Sequence record: OR896829.1
Source of the DNA: Escherichia phage MatMar
Direction: 5' to 3' (one strand)
DNA length: 50,761 bases
The notes below the pieces were generated by a model. That model ran no database searches. It saw only the letters and a program-made list of their open reading frames with translations, and was not told where the DNA came from. The position numbers and the translations under genes were made by a program. This document shows positions 9,206 through 48,952 of the stretch, in pieces. Each line of letters starts with the position of its first letter. Positions within the stretch are counted from its first letter, which is position 1.

Positions 9206-9868
9206 ATGCACCTTCCTAACGGTTCTCAAATTTTTATTGAAAGCAATCGAGCTACTGATGTGCAAGCAACGGCTATTTCTAACGCAGCAGATCCTGTATT
9301 TACAGTTGCATCAGGCGGCACTGAGTTTAAGAAAGGTGATTATGTAATTATCACTACTTCCTCATGGGGTAAGATGGTTGATCGCGTTCTTCGCGTCAAG
9401 CAGAATGGCGAAGAAACTAGCGTAACGCTTGAGGGTATTGATACTACAGATCAGAATATCTTCCCTTCCGGTGGTACTGCATCGTTTGCGAAAATCAATT
9501 CATGGGTTGAAATTCCATGCGTTCAGGATCTGTCACAGGACGGCGGCGAACAGCAATATTACACTTATCAGTGTTTATCTGACGACCAGGAGCAGCAGCT
9601 ACCAACATATAAAAGCGCGGTATCTCTTACCTACACTTTCGCGCATGAGTTCGATAATCCAATTTATCCATTGCTTCGAAAAGCTGATGAAGGAGGTGAG
9701 GTTACGGCGTTGCGAATGTTCGTTCCAAAGGCGAAAGAAATGCGTTGCTGGGCTGGTGTTCTTTCGTTTAACGAGATCCCGCAGACGACCGTCAACGAAA
9801 TGGAAACCGTTTCCCTTTCCGTTTCTCTGAAAGGTCGATTCACCTTCCTTCCTTCCGATGTTCAGTAA
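9206..9868 (+). CDS. major tail (tube) protein, putative
   Basis: 220 aa; AAGGAG RBS; followed by terminator and chaperone genes as in lambda V-G-T-H order. Confidence 0.5.
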   Translation: MHLPNGSQIFIESNRATDVQATAISNAADPVFTVASGGTEFKKGDYVIITTSSWGKMVDRVLRVKQNGEETSVTLEGIDTTDQNIFPSGGTASFAKINSWVEIPCVQDLSQDGGEQQYYTYQCLSDDQEQQLPTYKSAVSLTYTFAHEFDNPIYPLLRKADEGGEVTALRMFVPKAKEMRCWAGVLSFNEIPQTTVNEMETVSLSVSLKGRFTFLPSDVQ

Positions 9869-14742: not shown

Positions 14743-15473
14743 TGATTAGTGCAAAGATTAAACTTGAAATAATGCAGCACGTTAAAGACGAATACCCGCG
14801 CGAGGCGTGCGGGGTTATCACTCAAAAATCGCGGGTACAGAAATATCACCGCATAACAAATGTGCATGATGATCCAGAAAATCACTTTGAAATGGATACG
14901 ATGGAATACGTCGAAGCGTGCGACAGTGGCGAGCTTATTGCTATTGTGCATTCACACACTGGAGATGGGGCAAGTACAATCCCCAGTGCGCACGACACAT
15001 GTATGTGTGACGAAACAGGCGTATCATGGGTTATCGTTTCCTGGCCGGAAGGCGATATGCGAATAATAGAGCCGGAAACACGCCCACTGACTGGTCGCCC
15101 CTGGTCGCTTGGTTCTTATGATTGCTGGGGGCTTGTTATGGCCTGGCACAAAGAGAATGGCGTAGAACTGAACGACTTCCGAAAACCTTACGAATGGTGG
15201 AAGCCTGAATACGGCGAGAATCTCTATGAGGAAAACTATCTGAAAGAGGGGTTCATACCAACCAATCAGGATCCGAAGGCAGGCGATATGGTGATTTTTC
15301 AGCTATCATCGCCAGTCTGGAATCACGCCGGAATCTACTTAGGCAACAACCAGCTATTGCATCACGCTTTTGGTAAGCTATCAAAAATTGATCTGTATTC
15401 CGGCTGGTATCAGGAACATGCGGTAATGGTATGTAGGCATAAGGATCTAAAATATGACATTGAAAACAATTAA
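14742..15473 (+). CDS. tail assembly protein (lambda gpK-like, MPN/JAB plus NlpC/P60-like)
   Basis: 243 aa; HSHTGDG metal-binding-like motif then Cys/His peptidase-like C-terminal half; ATGA overlap with upstream gene. Confidence 0.7.
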   Translation: MISAKIKLEIMQHVKDEYPREACGVITQKSRVQKYHRITNVHDDPENHFEMDTMEYVEACDSGELIAIVHSHTGDGASTIPSAHDTCMCDETGVSWVIVSWPEGDMRIIEPETRPLTGRPWSLGSYDCWGLVMAWHKENGVELNDFRKPYEWWKPEYGENLYEENYLKEGFIPTNQDPKAGDMVIFQLSSPVWNHAGIYLGNNQLLHHAFGKLSKIDLYSGWYQEHAVMVCRHKDLKYDIENN

Positions 15474-16053
15474 ATTATCGGGGTCGTTAGGCCGTCGTTT
15501 TGGTGTATTTCACAAATTAGCCGTTGACTCATACCCCGAAGCAATCCGCGCCCTTTCTTCACAGATTGAAGGATTCAAGGATTACATGCAAAGCGAGGTG
15601 GGATCGCGTATGCGTTACGCTGTTATTGTTGACGGCAAAGAGATTAGCCAGCATGACGATCGCACCTGGCAATGCGCGAAAGAGATCAGGATAATCCCAA
15701 TTCCCACGGGGTCTAAGTCAGGCGGCCTGTTCCAATCCATCTTGGGTGTTACCATCATGGCAGTGGCAGTGGTTGCAACTGGCGGCGTAGCAGCAATGAT
15801 GGCTAGTTCGTTTGCATCGTCTGCTTTCCTTATGGGTGGCGCTATGGCATTGGGGGGAGTAACGCAAATGCTATCACCGCAACCAGGAGGGGCAAAAATG
15901 CAGGCAACAGCCACAGAGAACAAACCGTCATATGCCTTTGGTGGGGCTGTAAACACTTCTGCGGCTGGCTATCCACTTCCAATACCTTACGGATTGCGCA
16001 CCGTTGGTGGTGCGATCTGGTCGGCTGGAAGCTACGCGGAAGATAAAGCATAA
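15454..16053 (+). CDS. tail assembly protein (lambda gpI-like)
   Basis: 199 aa; Gly/Ala-rich hydrophobic C-terminal half; position between K-like and J-like genes. Confidence 0.6.
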   Translation: MTLKTIKLSGSLGRRFGVFHKLAVDSYPEAIRALSSQIEGFKDYMQSEVGSRMRYAVIVDGKEISQHDDRTWQCAKEIRIIPIPTGSKSGGLFQSILGVTIMAVAVVATGGVAAMMASSFASSAFLMGGAMALGGVTQMLSPQPGGAKMQATATENKPSYAFGGAVNTSAAGYPLPIPYGLRTVGGAIWSAGSYAEDKA

Positions 16054-20903: not shown

Positions 20904-20934
20904 CTTTGTATCTCCTTAGTTGTTGTTGTTTCCA

Positions 20935-20979
20935 ACTATACAAGATCTTGAACATCGAGTTTAGCAAAAAGTGCTATTT
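20935..20979 (-). promoter_or_regulatory. AAATAGCAC module (TTGCTA variant) with TATAGT box 21 bp downstream, upstream of lipoprotein operon
   Basis: - strand reads aaatagcactttttgctaaac N21 tatagt then RBS and ATG 20903. Confidence 0.45.
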
Positions 20980-21358
20980 GTTTTTTCTGTTCTCGCTTGT
21001 TATCAAATTCACACCTCCTTAATTTTAGCGCAAAACTTAAACACAAATTGGACAAACAATAGACAGTAAAATCATCTATATACATAAAAAATAAAGAGTT
21101 TATTTATCTATGTATCTATATTTGTTTTTATTTGTTCTCTGTGTTTCATTGGGTTGTGGTGTGTAGCATGTTTGGTGAGTGTATTGATTTATGTAATTAC
21201 AGATGCTCACTGGGTATTGCATATGTATGTATAAAGCTGAGCAGATACGCGAACGCGAGAACAGAAAAATAACAACCTTGATATTCAATCACTTATAATA
21301 TGATTTTGTTCTTAAGCTCAAAAGAAGCGTTTAGAAAACAGAAAAAACAAATCACCTA

Positions 21359-21386
21359 TTGACTAAACGCATCAAATAGCTAAAAT
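21359..21386 (+). promoter_or_regulatory. sigma70-like promoter (TTGACT N16 TAAAAT) upstream of exonuclease operon
   Basis: read directly; spacer contains AAATAGC. Confidence 0.45.
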
Positions 21387-21415
21387 GCAGGCATACCAAC
21401 CAATGAGGACGAATC

Positions 21416-22477
21416 ATGAATAAATTTATGGCTTACACCAGCGCAGAAATGAGCAACGAGCTTTATCACGATCCAGAAGCATGGACGGCTGAATATGTTA
21501 GCGGTTCAAGTCTGGCAGAGATTTACAGCACTTGCCCTGCTGCGTGGAAGTTCAAGCCGCGCGACGATAAGAGCAAGGCGCTCGTTTTCGGTACGCAGTC
21601 GCATACCAACTTCGAAAGCAAGGAGCTATTTGATAAAACTTACCGCCGTGCGCCAGCGCCGGAAGACTTCAAAGAGTTGATCACAAGCCAAACGGCATTG
21701 GCTGCAAAGCTGAAATCTTTTGGCCTGAAAGGGACAAGCGGAAAGGCTTACCCCGACCTTATCAAAATGATGGTTGATTGTGGCGAAGACCTTAACATCA
21801 TGTGGTTAATCGACATGATCGCAGAAAGCCAGGCCAGAGCCGACGGCGTACAGTTAATCGACGCGAAAGATTACGATGCTTGCGTGGCAATGCGCCAGGT
21901 TCTGGAATCCATACCGGAACATAACGCCTGCATGAACAGCCCGACGGCACAGCGTGAATTGTCGTTATTCGGCGAAATCAACGGCGTAAAAGTTAAAGTT
22001 CGATGTGATCACGTTGACGTAGTGAAAAACGTCACCGCCACGCTGATTGATGGTTATGACGAAAAAGGTCAGCCAATTTGTCGTGATATTGTTTATCCAG
22101 AAGCAGTGGTGATCACAGACTACAAAACAACAATGAGCGCAAATCCTATGGAGTTTATGCGACTGGCTTACAACCACGGTTATTATTTGAAAATGGCACT
22201 GCAACATGATTTATTCAGGAAGGCATATCCAGATGAGAAGCGACCTGTAGTTATGCGCCTGTTAGCCCAGGAGAAGAAGGAGCCTTATCTACCGCTGGCT
22301 TTCCGCATGAACAGCGAGCAATTGAAAATAGGCCGAGTCCAGTATGTTAGCGTGATCCAACAGTTTGCTATGTGCCAGCATCATGACGTATGGCCTGCGT
22401 ATGCAAACGGTGAGCCGGAAGTTTGCTTGGATACGCCTGAATTTGTGCGCCGACAGTTCAAGCAGTATCTGATTTAA
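21416..22477 (+). CDS. PD-(D/E)XK exonuclease (RecE / lambda-exo-like), putative
   Basis: 353 aa; VVITDYKTT D-x-K motif; followed by annealing protein and SSB genes. Confidence 0.55.
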   Translation: MNKFMAYTSAEMSNELYHDPEAWTAEYVSGSSLAEIYSTCPAAWKFKPRDDKSKALVFGTQSHTNFESKELFDKTYRRAPAPEDFKELITSQTALAAKLKSFGLKGTSGKAYPDLIKMMVDCGEDLNIMWLIDMIAESQARADGVQLIDAKDYDACVAMRQVLESIPEHNACMNSPTAQRELSLFGEINGVKVKVRCDHVDVVKNVTATLIDGYDEKGQPICRDIVYPEAVVITDYKTTMSANPMEFMRLAYNHGYYLKMALQHDLFRKAYPDEKRPVVMRLLAQEKKEPYLPLAFRMNSEQLKIGRVQYVSVIQQFAMCQHHDVWPAYANGEPEVCLDTPEFVRRQFKQYLI

Positions 22478-24435: not shown

Positions 24436-24714
24436 TTAAGCCCATTCTCTAATAGGCTGATCTAACTCAACCACGTAGTCGTTAAAAATTACGGCATCAA
24501 ACTTATCATCAATGATTCGCACATTGACGAAATAGCCGTCGTTCTTTCTCGCAACCTCCTCGCCATCGTCAGTGACCGAAATTACCTTATATGTGTATCC
24601 AATTACATCAATCATGATTGCGTTTTGAAGTTCATCATTATCATGCCATTCTATTTCGTCCAGAAAGGCGGAAAACTCCGCCTTGTCTGCAAATTTAAGT
24701 GTTAAATCTTTCAT
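24436..24714 (-). CDS. hypothetical protein (possible fibre assembly factor)
   Basis: 92 aa acidic protein between the two fibre-related genes. Confidence 0.4.
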   Translation of the reverse strand: MKDLTLKFADKAEFSAFLDEIEWHDNDELQNAIMIDVIGYTYKVISVTDDGEEVARKNDGYFVNVRIIDDKFDAVIFNDYVVELDQPIREWA

Positions 24715-26702
24715 TAAACAATCTCCCCCATTTGATGATCTGTTAATGCTTTATGCCAGATTCTGAAGTTTCTAACGTGCCCGAAAAGGTGTCTCTCTCC
24801 AGTGTTTGTTTGTCCGCCAATCCTTATGGTCGCAGTAGATACAACGTGACTATAAGTTGCCTTTGCTGAAGATGATAGAACAGCGTTACAAAGTGCTTGC
24901 GTATCTCCATTTTCACCACATCTAAATCCAGCGATAAATTTTCTACTTGTTGTTTTTACATATTTATTGATTCTTCCTGATCCGTCTCCTATATCCACAT
25001 AAGGAGATCCAGTATCAACAGCCGAACCACCTCGCAAACCGTGAATTATCGCTTGCCCTTCCTTTTGCCCAGTGAAATCCATAATTCTCGGAGCTGCATT
25101 AGGTGGAGAGTCCCACTCCCAATTACGATGAACCTCACTCATTACCGTTAGCGGAAGATTGTAGATATTGTTTTTTATTGGGAGAGTTACAAGATCGCTT
25201 GCCCGTGTTACTGGATTTGCTTCTGTAATTATGAAAGAAGAAGCACAAGACCCTCCCTCAACTTGCGGAGTTGCAATATAAATGTAATCGTCGGCAGTGG
25301 TTGCAGCCCCCTTTTCAGGTGCATATTGCACCATTGCACCAATCATGCTTTCCTGTTCTAATGCTGTGATCGTGGCCTCAAAAAATATCCATTTGCTTGA
25401 TTCATCTCTTACTGCTCTTGCTGTTATCCTGTTTGCAGCACCGCCTGTTTTTTCTATTGACAAGTCCTCAAGTCCGAGATAAGCATCACCCAAAAAGGTA
25501 TATCCACTATCATTATAATTTTCAAATCTAAGCCTGCACCTTATGTTTCCTTTACCTCCCTTTACTCTGCATGAGATTGTTACTCTTTTTTCTTCACCAG
25601 TAACATCAAAACCCTTACTACCAGATACTGTAACTATGTTAATAGCCGATGTTTGCCCTACCATTTCTGGCTTCAATGTAAACTTGCCAAATGAAAAACC
25701 GAAATCATCAACTCCTGATTGGTTTAATACCATGTTTGATGACTTGTTCCATTTTGAAGGATTGGTGCTATTTATAAGAAGGTTTGTTCTTTGCCCCTCG
25801 ATGAGAAGACCATCCTTTTCAAATCTAGGTTCATCAATAGCAGCATTAGTAAGCACGCCAGACTTATTAATGTAAGTAGCGGTTGATGCTCGTTTAAATT
25901 TAACAATCTTGTCGCCTGGCATTGTGATCTCATCATCACCTATGACAATCTTTTTGTATGACGGCGAGAATCCCGTAATCATATCAAGCGAATCATTAAA
26001 CGGTATCCACACGTCAGGCAATGGTTGCAATAAATCTTTGTAAGGTTCTGCCGCCTGCTTTGCGTATTCCTCCGCTTTATCTCGCGCACTTTCAGCGCCT
26101 GCCTTTGCGGTGTTCGCAGCATCACGCGCGGATTCAGCGCCAGACTTTGCTGCTTCAGCGCCAGTCTTTGCAGTGTTTGCAGCGTCGCGCGCGGATTCAG
26201 CGGCAGCCTTTGCAGTATCAGCGCCTTTCTTGCTATTCGCTGCATTTGTTGCGCTTGTCTTCGCGTTATTCTCGCTGGTTTTAGCTGCCTGCTGGCTTGC
26301 TGCTGCTGCGTCAGCATTTGTCTTTACGTCTTCTTGGATCTTCTGTAGCTTATCCCAATCAAAATCCTTGATGATCTCAATAAATCCAGCAAGCTCCGAC
26401 TCTTTCCCCATGTAGTAGCGCAATGTTTCCGCTACGTCTTGCGCCAGGCCATCAACAGTTAACGAGTCATGAAGCAAGATTATGTAGTCTGAACGGGGAA
26501 CAACAGCACCACCAGTGGTGATTGCTCGAATGCTAGTATCGTTGACCACTTCGGTGATAACTGCGGCCTGTAGCGGCTGAGTCAGAAAAATAATGGTTGC
26601 GCCGGAACGGATCAGCGTTAACTGCTCACGCCAGTTCGTCCCGTAGCCAGTTATATAGCCTTGAGCGTCCATTGACGCTTGACCTTTGCGATAAATTGCC
26701 AT
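24714..26702 (-). CDS. side tail fibre protein
   Basis: 662 aa from ATG at 26702 with AGGAGA RBS (ORF track starts at GTG 26726); tandem Ala/Lys-rich repeats AESARDAANTAK x3; lectin/jelly-roll-like C-terminal half. Confidence 0.65.
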   Translation of the reverse strand: MAIYRKGQASMDAQGYITGYGTNWREQLTLIRSGATIIFLTQPLQAAVITEVVNDTSIRAITTGGAVVPRSDYIILLHDSLTVDGLAQDVAETLRYYMGKESELAGFIEIIKDFDWDKLQKIQEDVKTNADAAAASQQAAKTSENNAKTSATNAANSKKGADTAKAAAESARDAANTAKTGAEAAKSGAESARDAANTAKAGAESARDKAEEYAKQAAEPYKDLLQPLPDVWIPFNDSLDMITGFSPSYKKIVIGDDEITMPGDKIVKFKRASTATYINKSGVLTNAAIDEPRFEKDGLLIEGQRTNLLINSTNPSKWNKSSNMVLNQSGVDDFGFSFGKFTLKPEMVGQTSAINIVTVSGSKGFDVTGEEKRVTISCRVKGGKGNIRCRLRFENYNDSGYTFLGDAYLGLEDLSIEKTGGAANRITARAVRDESSKWIFFEATITALEQESMIGAMVQYAPEKGAATTADDYIYIATPQVEGGSCASSFIITEANPVTRASDLVTLPIKNNIYNLPLTVMSEVHRNWEWDSPPNAAPRIMDFTGQKEGQAIIHGLRGGSAVDTGSPYVDIGDGSGRINKYVKTTSRKFIAGFRCGENGDTQALCNAVLSSSAKATYSHVVSTATIRIGGQTNTGERHLFGHVRNFRIWHKALTDHQMGEIV

Positions 26703-26718
26703 CTGTAATTTTCTCCTG

Positions 26719-26738
26719 TATAGCACTTTTTGCTAATG
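26719..26738 (+). repeat. AAATAGCAC element (TTGCTA variant) abutting tail-fibre RBS, oriented opposite to the gene
   Basis: + strand reads tatagcactttttgctaatg; no -10-like box at N22. Confidence 0.55.
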
Positions 26739-27800: not shown

Positions 27801-28277
27801 TTAGCTATTTGTGCTTTTTGGTTCTTTGTAAAATATTCCGCCAGGTTCATAATCGCGCATCGTTACCACTCGCAACATCTCACGACGTTCGCAACGTGTA
27901 ACAAGCGGCTTACCGTTTGAGTCGAATTTTAGATCCGGGCGACAGAATGATGCGCGATAGCCTTTACAGCCATTATATTTGTAGTCATTATGCACGCGTT
28001 GTGCGCCCATCGCTGAAATCATCCCGCGCTTGCGCCACATATTTACAGTTTGCTGGGATACTCCCAATCGACGAGCCATATTTGCCACACCTCCGAAATA
28101 CTCCAGAAGAATATCAAGGCGAGCGGTCAGTCCGGCTTTTACTTCTTCTTTCAGTATGTAATATCCGGTGCGCGGCTTGCGTGGCTTCTTGTCCTTGCCG
28201 CGTCGCGTTCCGTTGTTGCCGTTCAATGTTCTCTTGTCAATCTCACCAGTATAGGCCGCGATTCGCTTTTCTTTCAT
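27801..28277 (-). CDS. HTH DNA-binding protein (putative transcription regulator)
   Basis: 158 aa from ATG at 28277 with GAGGTG RBS (ORF track start 28436 is an upstream alternative codon); helix-turn-helix MARRLGVSQQTVNMWRKRG; basic N-terminal region. Confidence 0.5.
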   Translation of the reverse strand: MKEKRIAAYTGEIDKRTLNGNNGTRRGKDKKPRKPRTGYYILKEEVKAGLTARLDILLEYFGGVANMARRLGVSQQTVNMWRKRGMISAMGAQRVHNDYKYNGCKGYRASFCRPDLKFDSNGKPLVTRCERREMLRVVTMRDYEPGGIFYKEPKSTNS

Positions 28278-28287
28278 TTTGCACCTC

Positions 28288-28330
28288 ATAGCACTTTTTG
28301 TTAAAAATAGCTTTTGAACGTGTGTATTAT
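28288..28330 (+). promoter_or_regulatory. AAATAGCAC module with TATTAT box 21 bp downstream, upstream of helicase gene
   Basis: atagcactttttgttaaaa N21 tattat acacgcc. Confidence 0.45.
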
Positions 28331-28362
28331 ACACGCCTAATGGCTTATTAAAAGAGACAGTT

Positions 28363-30402
28363 ATGATTCCTAATATTGAAAAGCAGATAGCCGCTTTAGG
28401 TGAAGAAACGATCCGAAAAATACAGGAGCGTTTCACGGTTGGCGATATTGTGCCATATCCTTACCAGGTTGTTGCATACACTGAGATCGCAAAGCGTATG
28501 CGAAATTATCAGCATCCATTCTTTATTAAAGCGTCAGTATCAGCAGGCAAAACATTGATGTTTGCAATGGTTGCGGCGCAATGCCGGAAAATGGGCTTGA
28601 AAATGATGGTATTGGCGCGACAGGCTGAAATTGTTGATCAGGATTCAGAGGAGATCACAAATCTCGGCGTGCCAAATTCCATTTATTGTGCCGGACTGAA
28701 AACCAAAAGCGCATACTTTCCTATTGTGGTTGGTTCTGAGGGAACTGTAGTTAACGGCCTGTTTAAGTCACTTGGCGACTATGTTCCGCACGTTATCGGG
28801 ATTGACGAGTGTCATCAGGTGGATTGGGAAGACCTTGCCGACGCGATAGAGAATGATGAATCACTCATTCAAATGACGACAAAAAAGGGCGAGAAAGTAA
28901 AGAATCCAGATTACGACATCACGAACGCCCATGAGTGTGATGAATTCCTGATTGGGGAAGATGGCTTGCCAATGGAAGGAACAGGCCGGACACAGTACAC
29001 CGTTATCATCATGGAAATGATGCGTCGTTGCAGGAAGGAATACGGTCACGAATTGCGTATATTTGGCATGACTGGATCGGAATTTCGCGGCGTGGTTCCA
29101 ATCCTGGTTGAAGATAAAAAACAGAAAGGATTTTGGCGAGAACAGGTTACTAACATAGATACCAACTATCTGATCAAATTCGGTTCGGTTGTGCCAACCA
29201 ATTTTGGCGACGTTGGCGATCTCGGTTATGACCTGTCAGAGTTCGAGGCATCCAGCGAGGACGGAGTTGCAGATTTTGACGCGAAAACGCTTCGCAAAAT
29301 GGAACAGAAGATCCATGAAGAAGCCACTATGACTAAGCGCATCATGGAGAAGGTGCACGAAATATGTAAAAACCGTAACGGCGTATTGGTGACATGTGCA
29401 GGTGAAAGACATTGTAAAGAGGCGGCGGCAGCGTTGCCTCCTGGCACGACTTACCGGATCATCACTGGCAAGACTGGCGACAATCAGCGTAAAGAATGGC
29501 TGAAAGAAGCATACGAGGGGAAAGTAAAATACATCTTCCAGGTGCAGGCGCTAACCACTGGCGTTAACGTGCCGTTTTGGGATACGTCAGTTATTCTGCG
29601 TAAGATTGGATCGCTAACTTTGTTGATTCAGCTTTTAGGTCGCGGTATGCGACTGCTTAAAAAGTGGCACAAAGAGCAGGGCTTTCATAAAGACGATCAT
29701 CTTGTTTTGGACTTTTCCGGCACGATGGACGAGTTAGGAGAGCTTTATTTCGATCCGATACTGGAGCAGGCGCAGCATCAGAAGAGATTCAAAAACGGAA
29801 AAGATCCGAAGCCTTGCCCTGTATGCAAGACGTTAAACAGCTATTACGCTCGACGTTGTATGCACGTAGACGAAAACGGAAACAGATGCGAATGGTTTTT
29901 CAAATACAAGATATGCGAGGATCGGATAGACCAGCGCACCAGAAAGGTTATCCATCACGGCTGTGGTACTAAGAATGATATTGCGGCCAGGGTGTGCAGG
30001 CATTGCGATGTGTCGCTTATTGACCCTAACGAAAAGTTAAGCGGTAAGCACTACACAAAAAACGACTGGTTCCAGGTAAAATCTTTCTCGGTTGACATGA
30101 CGAAAAATCAGAAAGGGATCATCTTCAATTATGAGCTTTCCGACGGCATCGACACATTCAGGGCGCGAGAGATATTTTTCCCTGAATCAGAAAGCCAGAT
30201 TTGCAGGGATAAATGGCGTAGAGTCGCGTTAAAGCATATACCGGATCGCCGTATTGCTGGCATGGTGGCAAGCTATCGCAATGCAAGAAAAATCATGCAA
30301 TATGCGAATCACATCATGCAGCCGTCGATGGTAACTCACCGCAAGACGAGTAAGGGCGAAGATAATCTATACAAGAAGGAGTTTAATTATGGCAATGACT
30401 GA
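28363..30402 (+). CDS. SF2 DNA helicase with C-terminal zinc ribbons
   Basis: 679 aa; Walker A SVSAGKT, DECH box (IGIDECHQ), Cys-x2-Cys pairs near C-terminus. Confidence 0.7.
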   Translation: MIPNIEKQIAALGEETIRKIQERFTVGDIVPYPYQVVAYTEIAKRMRNYQHPFFIKASVSAGKTLMFAMVAAQCRKMGLKMMVLARQAEIVDQDSEEITNLGVPNSIYCAGLKTKSAYFPIVVGSEGTVVNGLFKSLGDYVPHVIGIDECHQVDWEDLADAIENDESLIQMTTKKGEKVKNPDYDITNAHECDEFLIGEDGLPMEGTGRTQYTVIIMEMMRRCRKEYGHELRIFGMTGSEFRGVVPILVEDKKQKGFWREQVTNIDTNYLIKFGSVVPTNFGDVGDLGYDLSEFEASSEDGVADFDAKTLRKMEQKIHEEATMTKRIMEKVHEICKNRNGVLVTCAGERHCKEAAAALPPGTTYRIITGKTGDNQRKEWLKEAYEGKVKYIFQVQALTTGVNVPFWDTSVILRKIGSLTLLIQLLGRGMRLLKKWHKEQGFHKDDHLVLDFSGTMDELGELYFDPILEQAQHQKRFKNGKDPKPCPVCKTLNSYYARRCMHVDENGNRCEWFFKYKICEDRIDQRTRKVIHHGCGTKNDIAARVCRHCDVSLIDPNEKLSGKHYTKNDWFQVKSFSVDMTKNQKGIIFNYELSDGIDTFRAREIFFPESESQICRDKWRRVALKHIPDRRIAGMVASYRNARKIMQYANHIMQPSMVTHRKTSKGEDNLYKKEFNYGND

Positions 30403-35437: not shown

Positions 35438-35756
35438 TCATTTCTCCTATCCGTGCCATATCCCTTATCCATTCATTTTGCATTCCCTCAAAGGTGTAAA
35501 ATTCGAATCCGAACGGCCTACGGGCAGATCCGTCAATGCACCAAAATCTACCTTCAACGCCATCCAGATAACCAGCGCCCATCATTCTTGCGCAAAACTC
35601 TTTCGATAGCATGGAAGCGAACATGCGCGGGGTGAATCCGGCCTGCTTCGCCAGGCGTTCACATTCTCTGTGCTGATAGATAAATTTTGCAATGTGCTGA
35701 CGAGTAAACCAGTCGTAAGACTCACACCATCTGTAGAGATCCAGAATGAACATCAT
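35361..35756 (-). CDS. hypothetical protein
   Basis: 131 aa; start ATG overlaps stop (TAATG) of upstream 527-aa gene. Confidence 0.45.
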   Translation of the reverse strand: MMFILDLYRWCESYDWFTRQHIAKFIYQHRECERLAKQAGFTPRMFASMLSKEFCARMMGAGYLDGVEGRFWCIDGSARRPFGFEFYTFEGMQNEWIRDMARIGEMSDDELFGAKSNRQDIEILRRKFNIT

Positions 35757-37339
35757 TACCCCATTAACACAGGATTCACAAAAATAACACCATTAATAAC
35801 ACAAACGTAGTTTTTTTGCTCAAGCATCGGAAGCAGTTGCGATTCTATGCGCTTCATCACGCCAGCTTGCCCCAGGAAAGGTTTTACCTTGCGTGCTGCC
35901 TCATACAAAGCGCGGACATTCAATACGCCTTTATTTGCCTTACCGTGGCGGGTGATTAACTCAATCAGTTTTGACATCTCGGCATCATCACCAGCATAGC
36001 CGGACGCGTTCGCCGCGCTGATATACGTTTTGCTCAATTCATGGAACATCAGCAAGGCTTCTTGCATCGTGTCAACGTCAATCTCTCTAGACTTTTGCGG
36101 GTATCCAGCAGGATTAAACCAATTGCGTATCACATGCAGAACGGCAGCAATGCGGATCACCTGCTTATCCATTTTACCCAGCGCACCGCGTAGCATCGTA
36201 TGCGAATACTTTCCGCCGTCGGCAAGATGCGGTTCCATATCCTGGCGTGCAATGTTCAGCACGCGCATTGCAGAACGGCTAACTTTCAGAGAAACGTTAA
36301 TTTCGCTCATAATGTTATGCACCAACTGAAAGTATTGCGCTTTCAATTCACCGTCTACTGGTTCGTAAGTTGAATCACCATTCTCATCCACAAATACACG
36401 CGTACCGATTAACGGCTGTTCGCGCACCAGTAGAAAACGCTCGCTTACACCGATGCCACGAGATCCTGCATCCATGATGCCATTAATGGTTTCATCCTGG
36501 GCGATAACACTCATACATCCAAGCGCAAAAAAACTCATGTTATTGTCTGCATTAGAACGGGCGATAGAAACATGGCCGTGATCCCATGCTTTTAACACAA
36601 GTTCGCTGTTAGTTTTGCGCTCGCTATTCGCGTAAGTCAGGCCAAGCAGACTGTTAATACTGGTTGCTTCATCAGAAATAACCGCGAAGTTTCCTTGTCT
36701 GTTATTTATCTTTGCTAATCCCTCTGGTGTGGTGTCGGAGACAGGGAAAACAACATCGCAAAGTTTGCTTAGTTTTTCTTCCAGATCTTCTTTTTCTTGA
36801 TATAGAATCTCCATATCTGCGCCGGAGCGTTCGCTTTTCATCTCCTTTAGTAGTCCGGCAAGTTTTGCCTGTATCTTTTTCCGTTCCTTCTTGCGTTGCT
36901 CGTTGATGCGCTCAACTTCTGCAACCATAGGCGCAATAGCCAGACTGTTAATCGCGGATTTACCTGCCGACGGAGGCTGGCTTGTCACAACGTAAAGCGC
37001 GGTCGGCTGATCGGTTCCGTGGTAGTCAACTGTGAATCGACCAAGCATAGCGGCAGAAATACATCCGATAAAGTGCATGTAGGCCGATGATTCAGGGAAT
37101 TGAACAGATCTCGCAAGATTGCGCGCCAGCTTACCAACTACATCAACATCATTCCCAAGTGAAATGACAGGGTAGCGGTCGTTAGCGCCGTTAATATCTT
37201 CCACCTGGCCCCAATAGCTTGAAGATTGGCGGTATCCGTTGGCCTGAATGGATACACGAACAGGGGAAATACCTTGAGATTCGGCGGTTTCAATGATTTG
37301 TTTCGGTGATAACTGACTTGTTTCAAATGAAAAATTCAT
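35756..37339 (-). CDS. large early protein with P-loop-like motif (putative NTPase)
   Basis: 527 aa; deviant Walker A PPSAGKS and Walker-B-like AVISDEAT separated by charged coiled-coil-like insert. Confidence 0.4.
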   Translation of the reverse strand: MNFSFETSQLSPKQIIETAESQGISPVRVSIQANGYRQSSSYWGQVEDINGANDRYPVISLGNDVDVVGKLARNLARSVQFPESSAYMHFIGCISAAMLGRFTVDYHGTDQPTALYVVTSQPPSAGKSAINSLAIAPMVAEVERINEQRKKERKKIQAKLAGLLKEMKSERSGADMEILYQEKEDLEEKLSKLCDVVFPVSDTTPEGLAKINNRQGNFAVISDEATSINSLLGLTYANSERKTNSELVLKAWDHGHVSIARSNADNNMSFFALGCMSVIAQDETINGIMDAGSRGIGVSERFLLVREQPLIGTRVFVDENGDSTYEPVDGELKAQYFQLVHNIMSEINVSLKVSRSAMRVLNIARQDMEPHLADGGKYSHTMLRGALGKMDKQVIRIAAVLHVIRNWFNPAGYPQKSREIDVDTMQEALLMFHELSKTYISAANASGYAGDDAEMSKLIELITRHGKANKGVLNVRALYEAARKVKPFLGQAGVMKRIESQLLPMLEQKNYVCVINGVIFVNPVLMG

Positions 37340-41006: not shown

Positions 41007-41041
41007 TTGCTATCTCCTGAGCGGTTTGTTTCGATGTGTGT

Positions 41042-41087
41042 AATGTACCCGATCAGAATGATTCGGTTTTAACAAAAAGTGCTATTC
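41042..41087 (-). promoter_or_regulatory. AAATAGCAC module, TACATT at N22, with no gene upstream of it
   Basis: - strand: atggaatagcactttttgttaaaac cgaatcattctgatcggg tacatt acacacatcg, then RBS and ATG 41006. Confidence 0.5.
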
Positions 41088-41681
41088 CATGCCTGGTGCA
41101 TTATTCCAGTTATTCCACGCTCAAAGAATAATCGGAATAAGTTGCTTAACTGTTAAATTGGTTAGTGTGATATGCGTTTACCAGGTTTTTCGATTGATTG
41201 CGTGTGTGATTAATCATGTGTGGCGGGGTGTATAGAAAGTAGTTGCCCTCTCGCCTCGTCCTGGTGGCGTCAGCAAACAGAAGCTGTTTATTTTGTTCGC
41301 GCGTGTTCGCGTTTCAGGGCGGCATGTTTCCGCGCTGTTTTTCAATGTATTGCGAACGCAAAAAACAAAATAAATCCCTTATAATACATTGAAAATAAAG
41401 AATATTTATTTATGTATATATTTATGTGTTATTTCTTGTTAGCGTTGTTAGTGTGGTATGTGATGGTTGCGGTGTCGCTTTGTTGGTATATATATGGATA
41501 GTTGCGCGCCTGGTGGAATGAGTATGTGTATATATACTTTTATTGCGATATTGCGCTAACAGCGCGAACAGAAAGAAAACAAGCGACAAAAACTTATTGC
41601 AAATCATGTTGTTATGTAGCGATTATCTCAAAACGTCGACAACGCGAACAGGCCGCGAACGTTATACGGACAAAATAAACA

Positions 41682-41709
41682 TTGACACGCATGAAATAGC
41701 AATTATAAT
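41682..41709 (+). promoter_or_regulatory. consensus sigma70-like promoter (TTGACA N16 TATAAT) for rightward early operon
   Basis: read directly; spacer contains AAATAGCA. Confidence 0.55.
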
Positions 41710-41740
41710 GGCCTGCAACTGACCAACAGGAGGAATGACA

Positions 41741-42202
41741 ATGAGTCAGAAAACATCGAAAGACTATTGCGACTGGTTGCGAGAGCTTGGTCGACGCCTT
41801 GCAAGCGGCGAGATTGTAGAGCATAAAATGTCAGTTCTCGACCTTGCCGGAATGTTAAACGGCGACGACTACTACAAGGTGACAAAGAATCAGGCATACA
41901 GCCGCACAATAATCAACCGCGTGCCGGAAGTGAAAGCGGTTGGAAAGGTGCGAATCAGAACGGAAGAAACGGAAGACGATAAGTTTTACGTTTTCAGCCT
42001 GAATCGCGACGTTAAGCGCAAGGTGATTACGAGCGAGGACTTGCCAGCAGTCCAGGCAAAGGCGGTTGAAAAGTTCGCCGCTCGCATTCTTGCATCAATG
42101 CCGAACGTTACCGACATGCAAGGCGATAAACTGGCTGGAGCTTGCGAAGGAATAAGTCGCTACCAGGAAATGATCCGCAATCTTGTTAACGAGGAGAAAT
42201 GA
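41741..42202 (+). CDS. hypothetical protein
   Basis: 153 aa from ATG 41741 with AGGAGG RBS. Confidence 0.45.
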   Translation: MSQKTSKDYCDWLRELGRRLASGEIVEHKMSVLDLAGMLNGDDYYKVTKNQAYSRTIINRVPEVKAVGKVRIRTEETEDDKFYVFSLNRDVKRKVITSEDLPAVQAKAVEKFAARILASMPNVTDMQGDKLAGACEGISRYQEMIRNLVNEEK

Positions 42203-42203
42203 A

Positions 42204-42467
42204 ATGAATAAGGCATTAATGGCGGTTTTTATGGCAACAGCATTCCTGACCGGATGTAATGGTGATGGTGCTTACGTCGATGCACAAATGGCTAACCCTG
42301 CCGATACTTACAACGTCAGAAAACTATTTACAGTCGATGGTTGCGATGTGTACAGGTTCAGCGATAGCCGATACGTGTACTTTACCAACTGCCAGGGTAG
42401 CGCAAACTGGTCAACTAACGAAGGCAAGTCGGTTAGTCACTACCAAAACACAACAAACGTGAAATAG
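42204..42467 (+). CDS. lipoprotein (second in genome)
   Basis: 87 aa from ATG 42204; signal peptide with lipobox LTGC. Confidence 0.5.
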   Translation: MNKALMAVFMATAFLTGCNGDGAYVDAQMANPADTYNVRKLFTVDGCDVYRFSDSRYVYFTNCQGSANWSTNEGKSVSHYQNTTNVK

Positions 42468-42507
42468 CACTTTTTGTTAAAACTCAAAAACGATAACCAG
42501 GCATAAT
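42462..42507 (+). promoter_or_regulatory. AAATAGCAC module, CATAAT at N22
   Basis: aaatagcactttttgttaaaac tcaaaaacgataaccagg cataat acacacatag. Confidence 0.5.
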
Positions 42508-48641: not shown

Positions 48642-48952
48642 TTTACATTCACTACTACCAAATCGGAACAAACGAGAACAAAAAAGAGCATCGCTTCATT
48701 CATGATGATTTTGACAAGGCAAAGGCGCAGCAACAGGTTTTAGGCGGTGTCATTCAGGCTTTTGAGCCTGTAGAAGATATTGAGCACCGCGATCATTTAA
48801 AAGATATTGTCATTGATGAGATCTCTTGCTTGATTGACGATATGACAAATCACGGCCCTGGTTCCCCGTGGGAAGATGCAGGATCTGTAACGTGGGACAA
48901 GGCAAAAGTTAAGACGCTAAACAACTTTCGGGAGATTCTCGACGGTTTTTAA
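48638..48952 (+). CDS. hypothetical protein
   Basis: 104 aa; ATGA overlap. Confidence 0.4.
   Translation: MIYIHYYQIGTNENKKEHRFIHDDFDKAKAQQQVLGGVIQAFEPVEDIEHRDHLKDIVIDEISCLIDDMTNHGPGSPWEDAGSVTWDKAKVKTLNNFREILDGF

Follow-up and report, generated by a model that had tools for sequence, protein, structure and literature searches.

The window analysed here, a 50,761-bp stretch of DNA, is the complete genome of a T1-like phage (Drexlerviridae, Tempevirinae, Warwickvirus), with 97-98% identity to the Escherichia phages Jahat_MG145, BEBK14 and WaterSpirit. The genome has two long divergent intergenic regions. Region A (20904-21415) separates the leftward gene of a Cor-like lipoprotein from the rightward exonuclease VIII/Erf/SSB operon, and region B (41007-41740) lies between a leftward early block, which contains a DUF3987 helicase, and a rightward early block. 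In both regions a sigma70-like promoter precedes the first rightward gene, which starts at 21416 in A and at 41741 in B. A preliminary description had noticed a pair of related blocks in these regions, each composed of an AT-rich, a GT-rich and a GCGAACAGAAA sub-block and each upstream of one of the two promoters. The sequences it gave for both blocks are present at their coordinates, all the sub-blocks were found, and the promoters are located at 21359-21386 (scan score 10/12) and 41682-41709 (12/12).

Pairwise alignment of the two blocks (21069-21275 against 41372-41582) gave 152 identical columns out of 223 (68%), which corresponds to 78% identity over the ungapped columns, with a score of 62. 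Dinucleotide shuffles of the block alone scored 21.2 +/- 3.1 (z 13), while shuffling the AT-rich, GT-rich and tail segments in place gave 24.4 +/- 4.7, with a maximum of 46 (z 7.9). Other 207-bp windows of the genome scored 30 or less against the block. Since the alignment of the two blocks scores above all these composition-matched controls, their similarity is greater than that expected by chance for two AT-rich sequences. Elsewhere in the genome, a 63-bp tandem duplication (26091-26216, 84% identity) is found within a large minus-strand tail-protein gene (24714-26726).

We then aligned the two copies present in the window with those of phages tunus, vB_EcoS-95, tiwna, W011D, JK16, PaulSarasin, KLB26 and PMBT35 and of ten IMG/VR contigs. 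In this family alignment the homology starts about 120 bp upstream of the block originally described and ends at the promoter and ribosome-binding site. A profile HMM made from 10 modules of related phages found exactly two matches in the window, both full length and with the promoters included, and had no match among 120 unrelated AT-rich viral loci. These control loci came from a scan of viral contigs with an AT-rich degenerate pattern, which gave only unrelated AT-rich viruses; a search for related loci through the gene to the right of block B gave a single locus. The preliminary description, which put one block upstream of each of two rightward early operons, was correct but incomplete, because the promoters themselves are part of the duplicated unit. 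The A-type modules group with the A-type orthologues of other genomes and the B-type modules with the B-type ones, indicating that the duplication is old and that both copies have been retained. By sequence comparison, therefore, the two blocks are the cores of real, anciently duplicated modules of about 450 bp, each taking up one divergent intergenic region, and every T1-like phage examined has the pair at these two places.

In Shigella phage JK16 (NC_049814.1, about 14830-15850; our loci L146/L151), module B and its promoter are present twice in tandem, the two copies being near-identical and separated by a 69-aa gene (gp29). One phage can thus hold three modules. No E. coli genome or plasmid matched module B in a BLAST search, which gives no indication that a satellite or plasmid has borrowed the element.

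The two modules consist of the following features (coordinates of the window):

20955-21412, plus strand: module A, whole homologous unit of about 450 bp (profile HMM, E 1e-89)
20979-21004, plus strand: A, left (L) array, three TGTT(C/A) units spaced 9-10 bp (alignment and pattern count)
21077-21085, plus strand: A, -10-like box TATATACAT, conserved (25 modules keep the TATA(A/T)T core and a good part of the ACAT after it)
21074-21133, no strand: A, AT-rich core, 87% A+T, candidate DNA unwinding element (nearest-neighbour free energy, z 4.5)
21123-21147, plus strand: A, internal (I) array, three TGTT units, begins at the end of the core (alignment and pattern count)
21099-21245, plus strand: A, G+T-rich, C-poor stretch, 78% G+T per 100 bp (keto skew z 4.2-4.8)
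21248-21275, minus strand: A, right (R) array, inverted, GAAC/AACA units, holds the GAGAACAGAAA segment of the preliminary description (alignment)
21327-21351, minus strand: A, promoter-proximal (P) array, A-rich AACA units, ends 7 bp before the -35 (alignment)
21359-21386, plus strand: A, sigma70-type promoter of the exonuclease operon, TTGACT-16-TAAAAT (scan 10/12; counterpart of the predicted TLS promoter P51)
41262-41738, plus strand: module B, whole homologous unit of about 450 bp (profile HMM, E 2e-94)
41285-41311, plus strand: B, left (L) array (alignment and pattern count)
41380-41389, plus strand: B, conserved -10-like box TATAATACAT (module alignment)
41366-41425, no strand: B, AT-rich core, candidate DNA unwinding element (nearest-neighbour free energy, z 4.5)
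41427-41451, plus strand: B, internal (I) array (alignment and pattern count)
41405-41554, plus strand: B, G+T-rich, C-poor stretch (highest keto skew of the genome, z 4.8-4.9)
41553-41582, minus strand: B, right (R) array, inverted, holds GCGAACAGAAA (alignment and pattern count)
41643-41681, minus strand: B, promoter-proximal (P) array, adjoins the -35 hexamer (alignment)
41682-41709, plus strand: B, consensus sigma70 promoter of the rightward early operon, TTGACA-16-TATAAT (scan 12/12; counterpart of the predicted TLS promoter P01)

The order of the elements is L array, box, AT-rich core, I array, G+T-rich stretch, R array, spacer, P array and sigma70 promoter. Each module has four arrays of TGTT(C/A) pentamers about 10 bp apart; the units point in the same direction left of the centre, where the I array keeps the orientation of the L array, and in the opposite direction right of it, where the two remaining arrays are inverted. 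The AT-rich core, which measures about 45-60 bp, sits between the two arrays of the same orientation (L and I), and the inversion point falls in the G+T-rich stretch. The latter is about 110 bp long, and within the Tempevirinae its sequence varies while its composition is conserved. A search of both genome strands for the strict three-unit array gave five occurrences against 0.2 expected, all of them within the two regions. Unlike this array, the bare pentamer is not module-specific in its genome-wide density. An A-rich stretch separates the L array from the box, whose consensus is TATA(A/T)TACAT; neither a -35 hexamer at 16-18 bp nor an extended -10 was seen by eye for this box, and the promoter scan calls none. 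The spacer between the R and P arrays is semi-conserved, with about 50 bp in A and 60 bp in B, and the TTGAC of the sigma70 promoter is invariant (25 of the 25 modules).

Two further sequence features deserve a mention. Between the L array and the box, the A-type modules (those of the window, tunus, W011D and KLB26) carry a small palindrome, AAATT(T)-N8-11-(A)AATTT, at about 21009-21027 in the window, which in KLB26 reads GAATTT...AAATTC, a change that looks compensatory. The B-type modules have TTTCAGGCGGCGTGTTTCCGCGCGG in its place, and this palindrome or its B-type substitute may represent a separate operator-like site. On the plus strand of region B, CCTGGTGG, which has 7 of the 8 bases of Chi (GCTGGTGG), occurs both to the left of the module (41260-41267) and inside the G+T-rich stretch (41509-41516).

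When nearest-neighbour free energy was calculated over the whole genome, the AT-rich cores were its two least stable duplex segments at 40, 60 and 100 bp (z 3.9-4.5); at 60 bp the B core ranks first and the A core second. The G+T-rich stretches are in turn the two most strand-asymmetric segments of 100-150 bp (z 4.2-4.9). Over the whole genome, the cumulative GC, AT and keto skews tracked only gene orientation and transcription, and an origin signal was absent. An UP element and a binding region for a DNA-bending protein had been put forward as possible roles for the blocks; our results gave no support for a static bend, and the position of the blocks does not fit an UP element. According to a wedge model, an approximate calculation, the static bend of the modules falls at the 96-98th percentile (z 2.2-3.0), with maxima at non-homologous positions, and the modules are absent from the six most curved genome segments listed at any window size. 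UP elements are A+T-rich, lie at about -40 to -60 and contact the C-terminal domain of the RNA polymerase alpha subunit. The blocks start about 280-310 bp upstream of the -35 and end 84 bp (A) or 100 bp (B) upstream of it, and only the P arrays are positioned where an UP element could act.

Unstable segments were also found at the corresponding places in other subfamilies. T1 (Tunavirinae) has its two least stable segments, 208-307 and 29998-30097 (z 5.3-5.9), within the syntenic counterparts of the two intergenic regions, and in Rtp (Braunvirinae) those at 202-301 and 28084-28183 (z 4.3-5.1) occupy the same syntenic places. By BLAST, the T1 regions have no similarity to the blocks of the window except for a common 21-nt repeat. 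Each of the T1 sites has a TATAAT box and flanking short repeats of a related type (TGTAACA, GATTAACA, ATTACGCC), and the two blocks of Rtp are clearly homologous to one another. Note that the G+T skew is not universal: it is weaker at the T1 B site and missing from the T1 A site and from both sites of Rtp.

A more distant case is provided by L153, a 48-kb phage contig from an ENA metagenome, whose DUF3987 helicase is 36% identical and whose gene order is different. Over the 21.5-kb locus examined, duplex stability is lowest (z 4.4-5.3) between divergent genes, in an origin-like intergenic region that directly precedes the helicase operon. There (9307-9782), an AT-rich core is flanked by two copies of AAGGGTTA on one side and two of TTAACCCT on the other, with further inverted short repeats (GGGGAAGG / CTTCCCC) and a CTATAATAT box inside. 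The exonuclease operon of this contig is without such an element, which indicates that the element tracks the helicase and not the exonuclease promoter. The -10-like box is kept in every lineage examined, including T1, Rtp and L153.

The modules differ in sequence from the 21-nt direct repeat of T1-like phages, aaATAGCACnnnTTGnTAAAA, which was described in the TLS paper as conserved and intergenic (PMC11447400), and the blocks are not copies of it. The window has 19 copies of this repeat, all oriented with transcription and one of them to the left of each module (examples are 20958-20978 and 41066-41086 on the minus strand, and 28288-28308 and 42464-42484 on the plus strand). The repeat, ATAGCACnnnTTGnTAAA, resembles one portion of a promoter-like element with three parts. 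A TAnnnT hexamer (CATAAT, TATAAT, TACATT or similar) begins 21-22 nt after TTGnTA in 12 of the 19 copies, a spacing that exceeds that of a normal -35/-10 pair; a CATCGAnAAC-like motif follows about 8-10 nt further on in many copies, and several have a G+C hairpin in the spacer. A third host-type promoter (leftward), with a TATAAT -10 followed by ACACACG, serves a Cro-like regulator and the primase. At 28288-28345 it overlaps back-to-back with the rightward 21-nt-repeat element of the SNF2-like helicase gene, and the -10-like hexamers of both fall on the same base pairs.

Two proteins encoded in the window are candidates for binding the arrays:

35756-37339, minus strand: DUF3987 'DNA helicase', candidate trans-acting partner (by prediction an MCM-like AAA+ ATPase, with a winged helix at its C terminus)
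27801-28277, minus strand: Cro-like helix-turn-helix regulator, alternative candidate binder (encoded just upstream of the primase gene)

The predicted fold of the DUF3987 helicase has the architecture of a hexameric AAA+ protein with a C-terminal winged helix. A sequence search of this protein against the PDB gave nothing, and the fold comparison alone was informative; its winged-helix match is generic and not specific to an origin-binding domain. The other replication genes encode a SNF2-like helicase and a zinc-ribbon primase, which matches the N-terminal half of a primase family (profile of 667 positions). None of the seven replication-region proteins had a Pfam match to a DnaB-type helicase, a loader or a gp38-like family. 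Comparison of the window, T1 and Rtp gave no simple co-variation of the repeat type with the recognition helix of either the winged helix or the Cro-like protein. Sites of host response regulators of the ArcA, OmpR or PhoP type were considered as an alternative but would fit poorly: the array units are 9-10 bp apart, versus 11 bp in the direct repeats of ArcA and PhoP.

Among the four roles proposed in the preliminary description, a replication origin-like unwinding element is the best supported, given the least stable DNA, the exclusive opposed repeats and the MCM-like helicase. Our reading is that the modules could be paired replication origins of the iteron-plus-unwinding-element kind, in two paralogous copies, and we hold this with roughly even confidence. 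The MCM-like helicase would bind the TGTT(C/A) arrays through its C-terminal winged helix, and the opposed directions of the arrays would allow two hexamers to be loaded in opposite orientations. The AT-rich core would then melt, aided by the negative supercoiling from divergent early transcription, and transcription from the TATAAT-like box into the core may also help. The separately encoded zinc-ribbon primase would subsequently prime synthesis. Module A, beside the exonuclease/Erf/SSB operon, is perhaps a second origin; alternatively, it might be a protein-bound fork barrier that leads to recombination-dependent concatemer synthesis, as has been proposed for SPP1 oriR.

The arguments for an origin are that the cores are the least stable DNA of the genome and occupy the same syntenic sites in T1 and Rtp, and that each core is flanked by module-exclusive repeats about one helical turn apart in opposed orientations. 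Further support comes from the unstable, repeat-flanked segment beside the helicase operon of L153 and from the precedent of two similar origins in SPP1. In addition, the coding and structured-RNA explanations fail (see below). Against an origin, the duplicated unit includes the sigma70 promoter and behaves as a promoter cassette would, since in JK16 the tandem duplication took in module, promoter and a small gene. The L and P arrays sit directly upstream of outward-facing promoter elements, and a transcription factor site or UP-like element would explain them equally well. The AT-rich core is not at the inversion point of the arrays. Other points on this side are the separation of the modules from the helicase gene, unlike in the SaPIs, the generic winged helix, the lack of co-variation of the recognition helices and the lack of a GC-skew signal.

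In the SaPIs (Staphylococcus aureus pathogenicity islands), the Rep proteins act as initiator helicases of the self-loading kind, and with their C-terminal winged helix they recognise iterons of five or six nucleotides, located in opposite directions on both sides of an AT-rich region (PMC9371898). The T1-like modules resemble these origins in combining short repeats of both directions with an AT-rich region, although here the core sits between two arrays of the same orientation, and in belonging to a phage that encodes a predicted AAA+ helicase with a C-terminal winged helix; the SaPI helicase is MCM-like in the SaPIbov1/Rep2 type, with the primase separate or fused (PMC9371898). However, SaPI origins lie immediately downstream of rep, whereas modules B and A are 3.9 kb and 14 kb, respectively, from the helicase gene, and adjacency of the element to the helicase operon was found only in the distant contig L153. 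The oriL and oriR of SPP1 are similar origins, each combining direct repeats with an AT-rich unwinding element (PMC6316719). SPP1, a phage of Bacillus subtilis, and the phages studied here are both virulent pac-type siphoviruses of about 45-50 kb in which two regions of similar organisation lie far apart, with exonuclease, annealase and SSB recombination genes implicated in the later replication mode. In SPP1, however, the separate origin-binding protein gp38 works with a DnaB-type helicase and a loader, whereas the helicase here is MCM-like, and oriL is inside gene 38, of which no homologue was seen in the window.

Phage P4 has separated cis regions, ori and crr, with the same short iterons, and these are bound by the C-terminal winged helix of the alpha primase-helicase. 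Alpha is a single SF3 polypeptide, whereas the primase and the MCM-like helicase of the window are encoded by separate genes. The P4 iteron, which we take to be TGTTCACC, is like some of the arrays here (for example TGTTCACC in phage tunus), a likeness to be read as a lead only. Finally, in T4 oriF/oriG, the T7 primary origin and ColE1, a promoter is followed by an unwinding element or an R-loop. The modules are similar in that the -10-like box is immediately upstream of the least stable DNA and, in the Tempevirinae, is followed by a G-rich non-template strand; they differ in having no recognisable -35 or activator box, and those origins are without flanking iteron arrays.

A more elaborate version of the origin reading, which we think rather unlikely, is that the two modules are origin-promoter cassettes served by a bacterial-virus MCM-like self-loading helicase, with melting licensed by divergent early transcription and with the roles divided between theta firing and a protein-bound fork trap beside exonuclease/Erf/SSB, which would turn the phage over to recombination-dependent concatemer synthesis. 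A -35-less promoter within the unwinding element would perhaps also license melting in such a scheme.

The main rival explanation, possible though doubtful, sees in the modules the transcriptional control regions of two of the three early promoters of host type. A phage regulator such as the Cro-like protein, or else a host factor, might, again tentatively, occupy the four arrays, so that the flexible AT-rich DNA is wrapped or looped. The effect would conceivably be that the sigma70 promoter is boosted and later shut off, and that the opposed 21-nt-repeat promoter is perhaps activated. The closest analogy is the p4/p6 switch region of phi29, between divergent early and late promoters. In support of this possibility, the promoter with its invariant TTGAC is inside the duplicated unit, and JK16 duplicated module and promoter as a cassette. 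The P array adjoins the -35, the L array of module A adjoins the leftward 21-nt repeat, the module-bearing promoters are two of the three predicted TLS sigma70 promoters, and the third promoter drives the gene of the Cro-like regulator. However, this third promoter has no module, and dimers of the Cro type normally bind palindromes, not direct repeats of three units. Transcriptional control likewise leaves unexplained why the core has to be the genome's least stable DNA in each of three subfamilies, and in L153 the equivalent element adjoins the helicase operon, while the exonuclease operon is without a module. Moreover, the block, at -85 to -300, is too distant for an UP element. Note that a role as an origin and a role in the control of the early promoters are not mutually exclusive.

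A role of the block as RNA, transcribed from the TATAAT-like box, is improbable, whether as a long 5' leader, as a small RNA or as the primer of an R-loop; the last version, of the T4 oriF or ColE1 type with a G-rich non-template stretch, overlaps the origin model. The presence of the box in all the lineages examined, the similar TATAATACA of the third sigma70 promoter and the G+T-rich non-template strand downstream would be consistent with transcription, and the single-sequence folds of the blocks have modest z values of -1.6 to -3.0. However, no -35 or extended -10 is visible for the box, an Rfam search of the blocks gave no match, RNAalifold found no consensus pair on either strand in 19-20 modules, no terminator was predicted, and the G+T skew is weaker or absent in T1 and absent in Rtp. 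A long-range stem or cruciform formed by the arrays was also considered and rejected. The complementarity of the arrays was 12.45 within a module and 10.62 between modules (p about 0.005), a small excess with no real compensatory pattern.

Very unlikely, too, is a function of the blocks as packaging or recombination sites, that is, as a second pac-like site or as a hotspot for exonuclease/Erf. Module A does adjoin the recombination operon, and region B is the intergenic region that, in the T1 record, holds the left end and the start of the terminal repeat; the pac of T1-like phages has been placed in this region (PMC7718038). The window has direct and inverted TTATTCC/GGAATAA repeats specific to region B, from 41099-41141 on to about 41260, left of the module. 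At the equivalent place T1 and Rtp have TTGC/GCAATGATT repeats, which in the T1 record are at 48760-48836 and 1-100, around position 1 and the start of the terminal repeat. The repeats left of module B are probably the pac or small-terminase recognition region. We rejected the module itself as the pac region: pac-like repeats are found some 150-250 bp to its left in B, without a counterpart at A, and about 210 bp separate the box from position 1 of the T1 record, which lies to its left. Nor does the module contain anything that resembles a known recombinase site.

The idea that the blocks encode small proteins, or that their resemblance is a low-complexity coincidence, can practically be dismissed: minus-strand ORFs of 61-62 aa do overlap both blocks and CDSs are annotated there in WaterSpirit and vB_EcoS-95, but stop codons fill the AT-rich core in all frames, no ORF is conserved in 11 lineages, where the longest ones vary in strand, position and sequence, and the alignment scored above every control. 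The translations of the two 61-62-aa ORFs are unrelated except for the short part that translates the conserved GAACAGAAA segment. Hypothetical proteins have been annotated across the modules in OR896833.1 (WaterSpirit, for example 20938-21087 and 21102-21290), NC_048132.1 (vB_EcoS-95) and PP554580.1 (PMBT35), and these CDSs are probably over-annotation. The modules are, in summary, neither coding nor structured RNA.

The reading of the modules as paired origins bears on an old gap. Although T1 belongs to the seven classical T phages, the TLS and SU57 papers, whose authors looked for an origin in T1-like phages, state that they found none (PMC11447400, PMC7718038). The modules are undescribed in the TLS, SU57, KanT1 and O157-phage papers, and a search for T1 transcript maps or origin mapping gave nothing relevant in the literature collection covered. 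An annotation consequence is that several GenBank records have hypothetical proteins that span non-coding modules. What our analysis offers is a pair of precisely placed candidate origins, each about 450 bp long, together with a defined motif of short repeats and one particular candidate initiator, the predicted MCM-like helicase with its winged helix, and with these the question of the T1 origin becomes directly testable. If the modules were instead control regions, they would govern two of the three host-polymerase promoters that start infection, which would matter for the engineering of phages that are both common laboratory contaminants and candidates for therapy.
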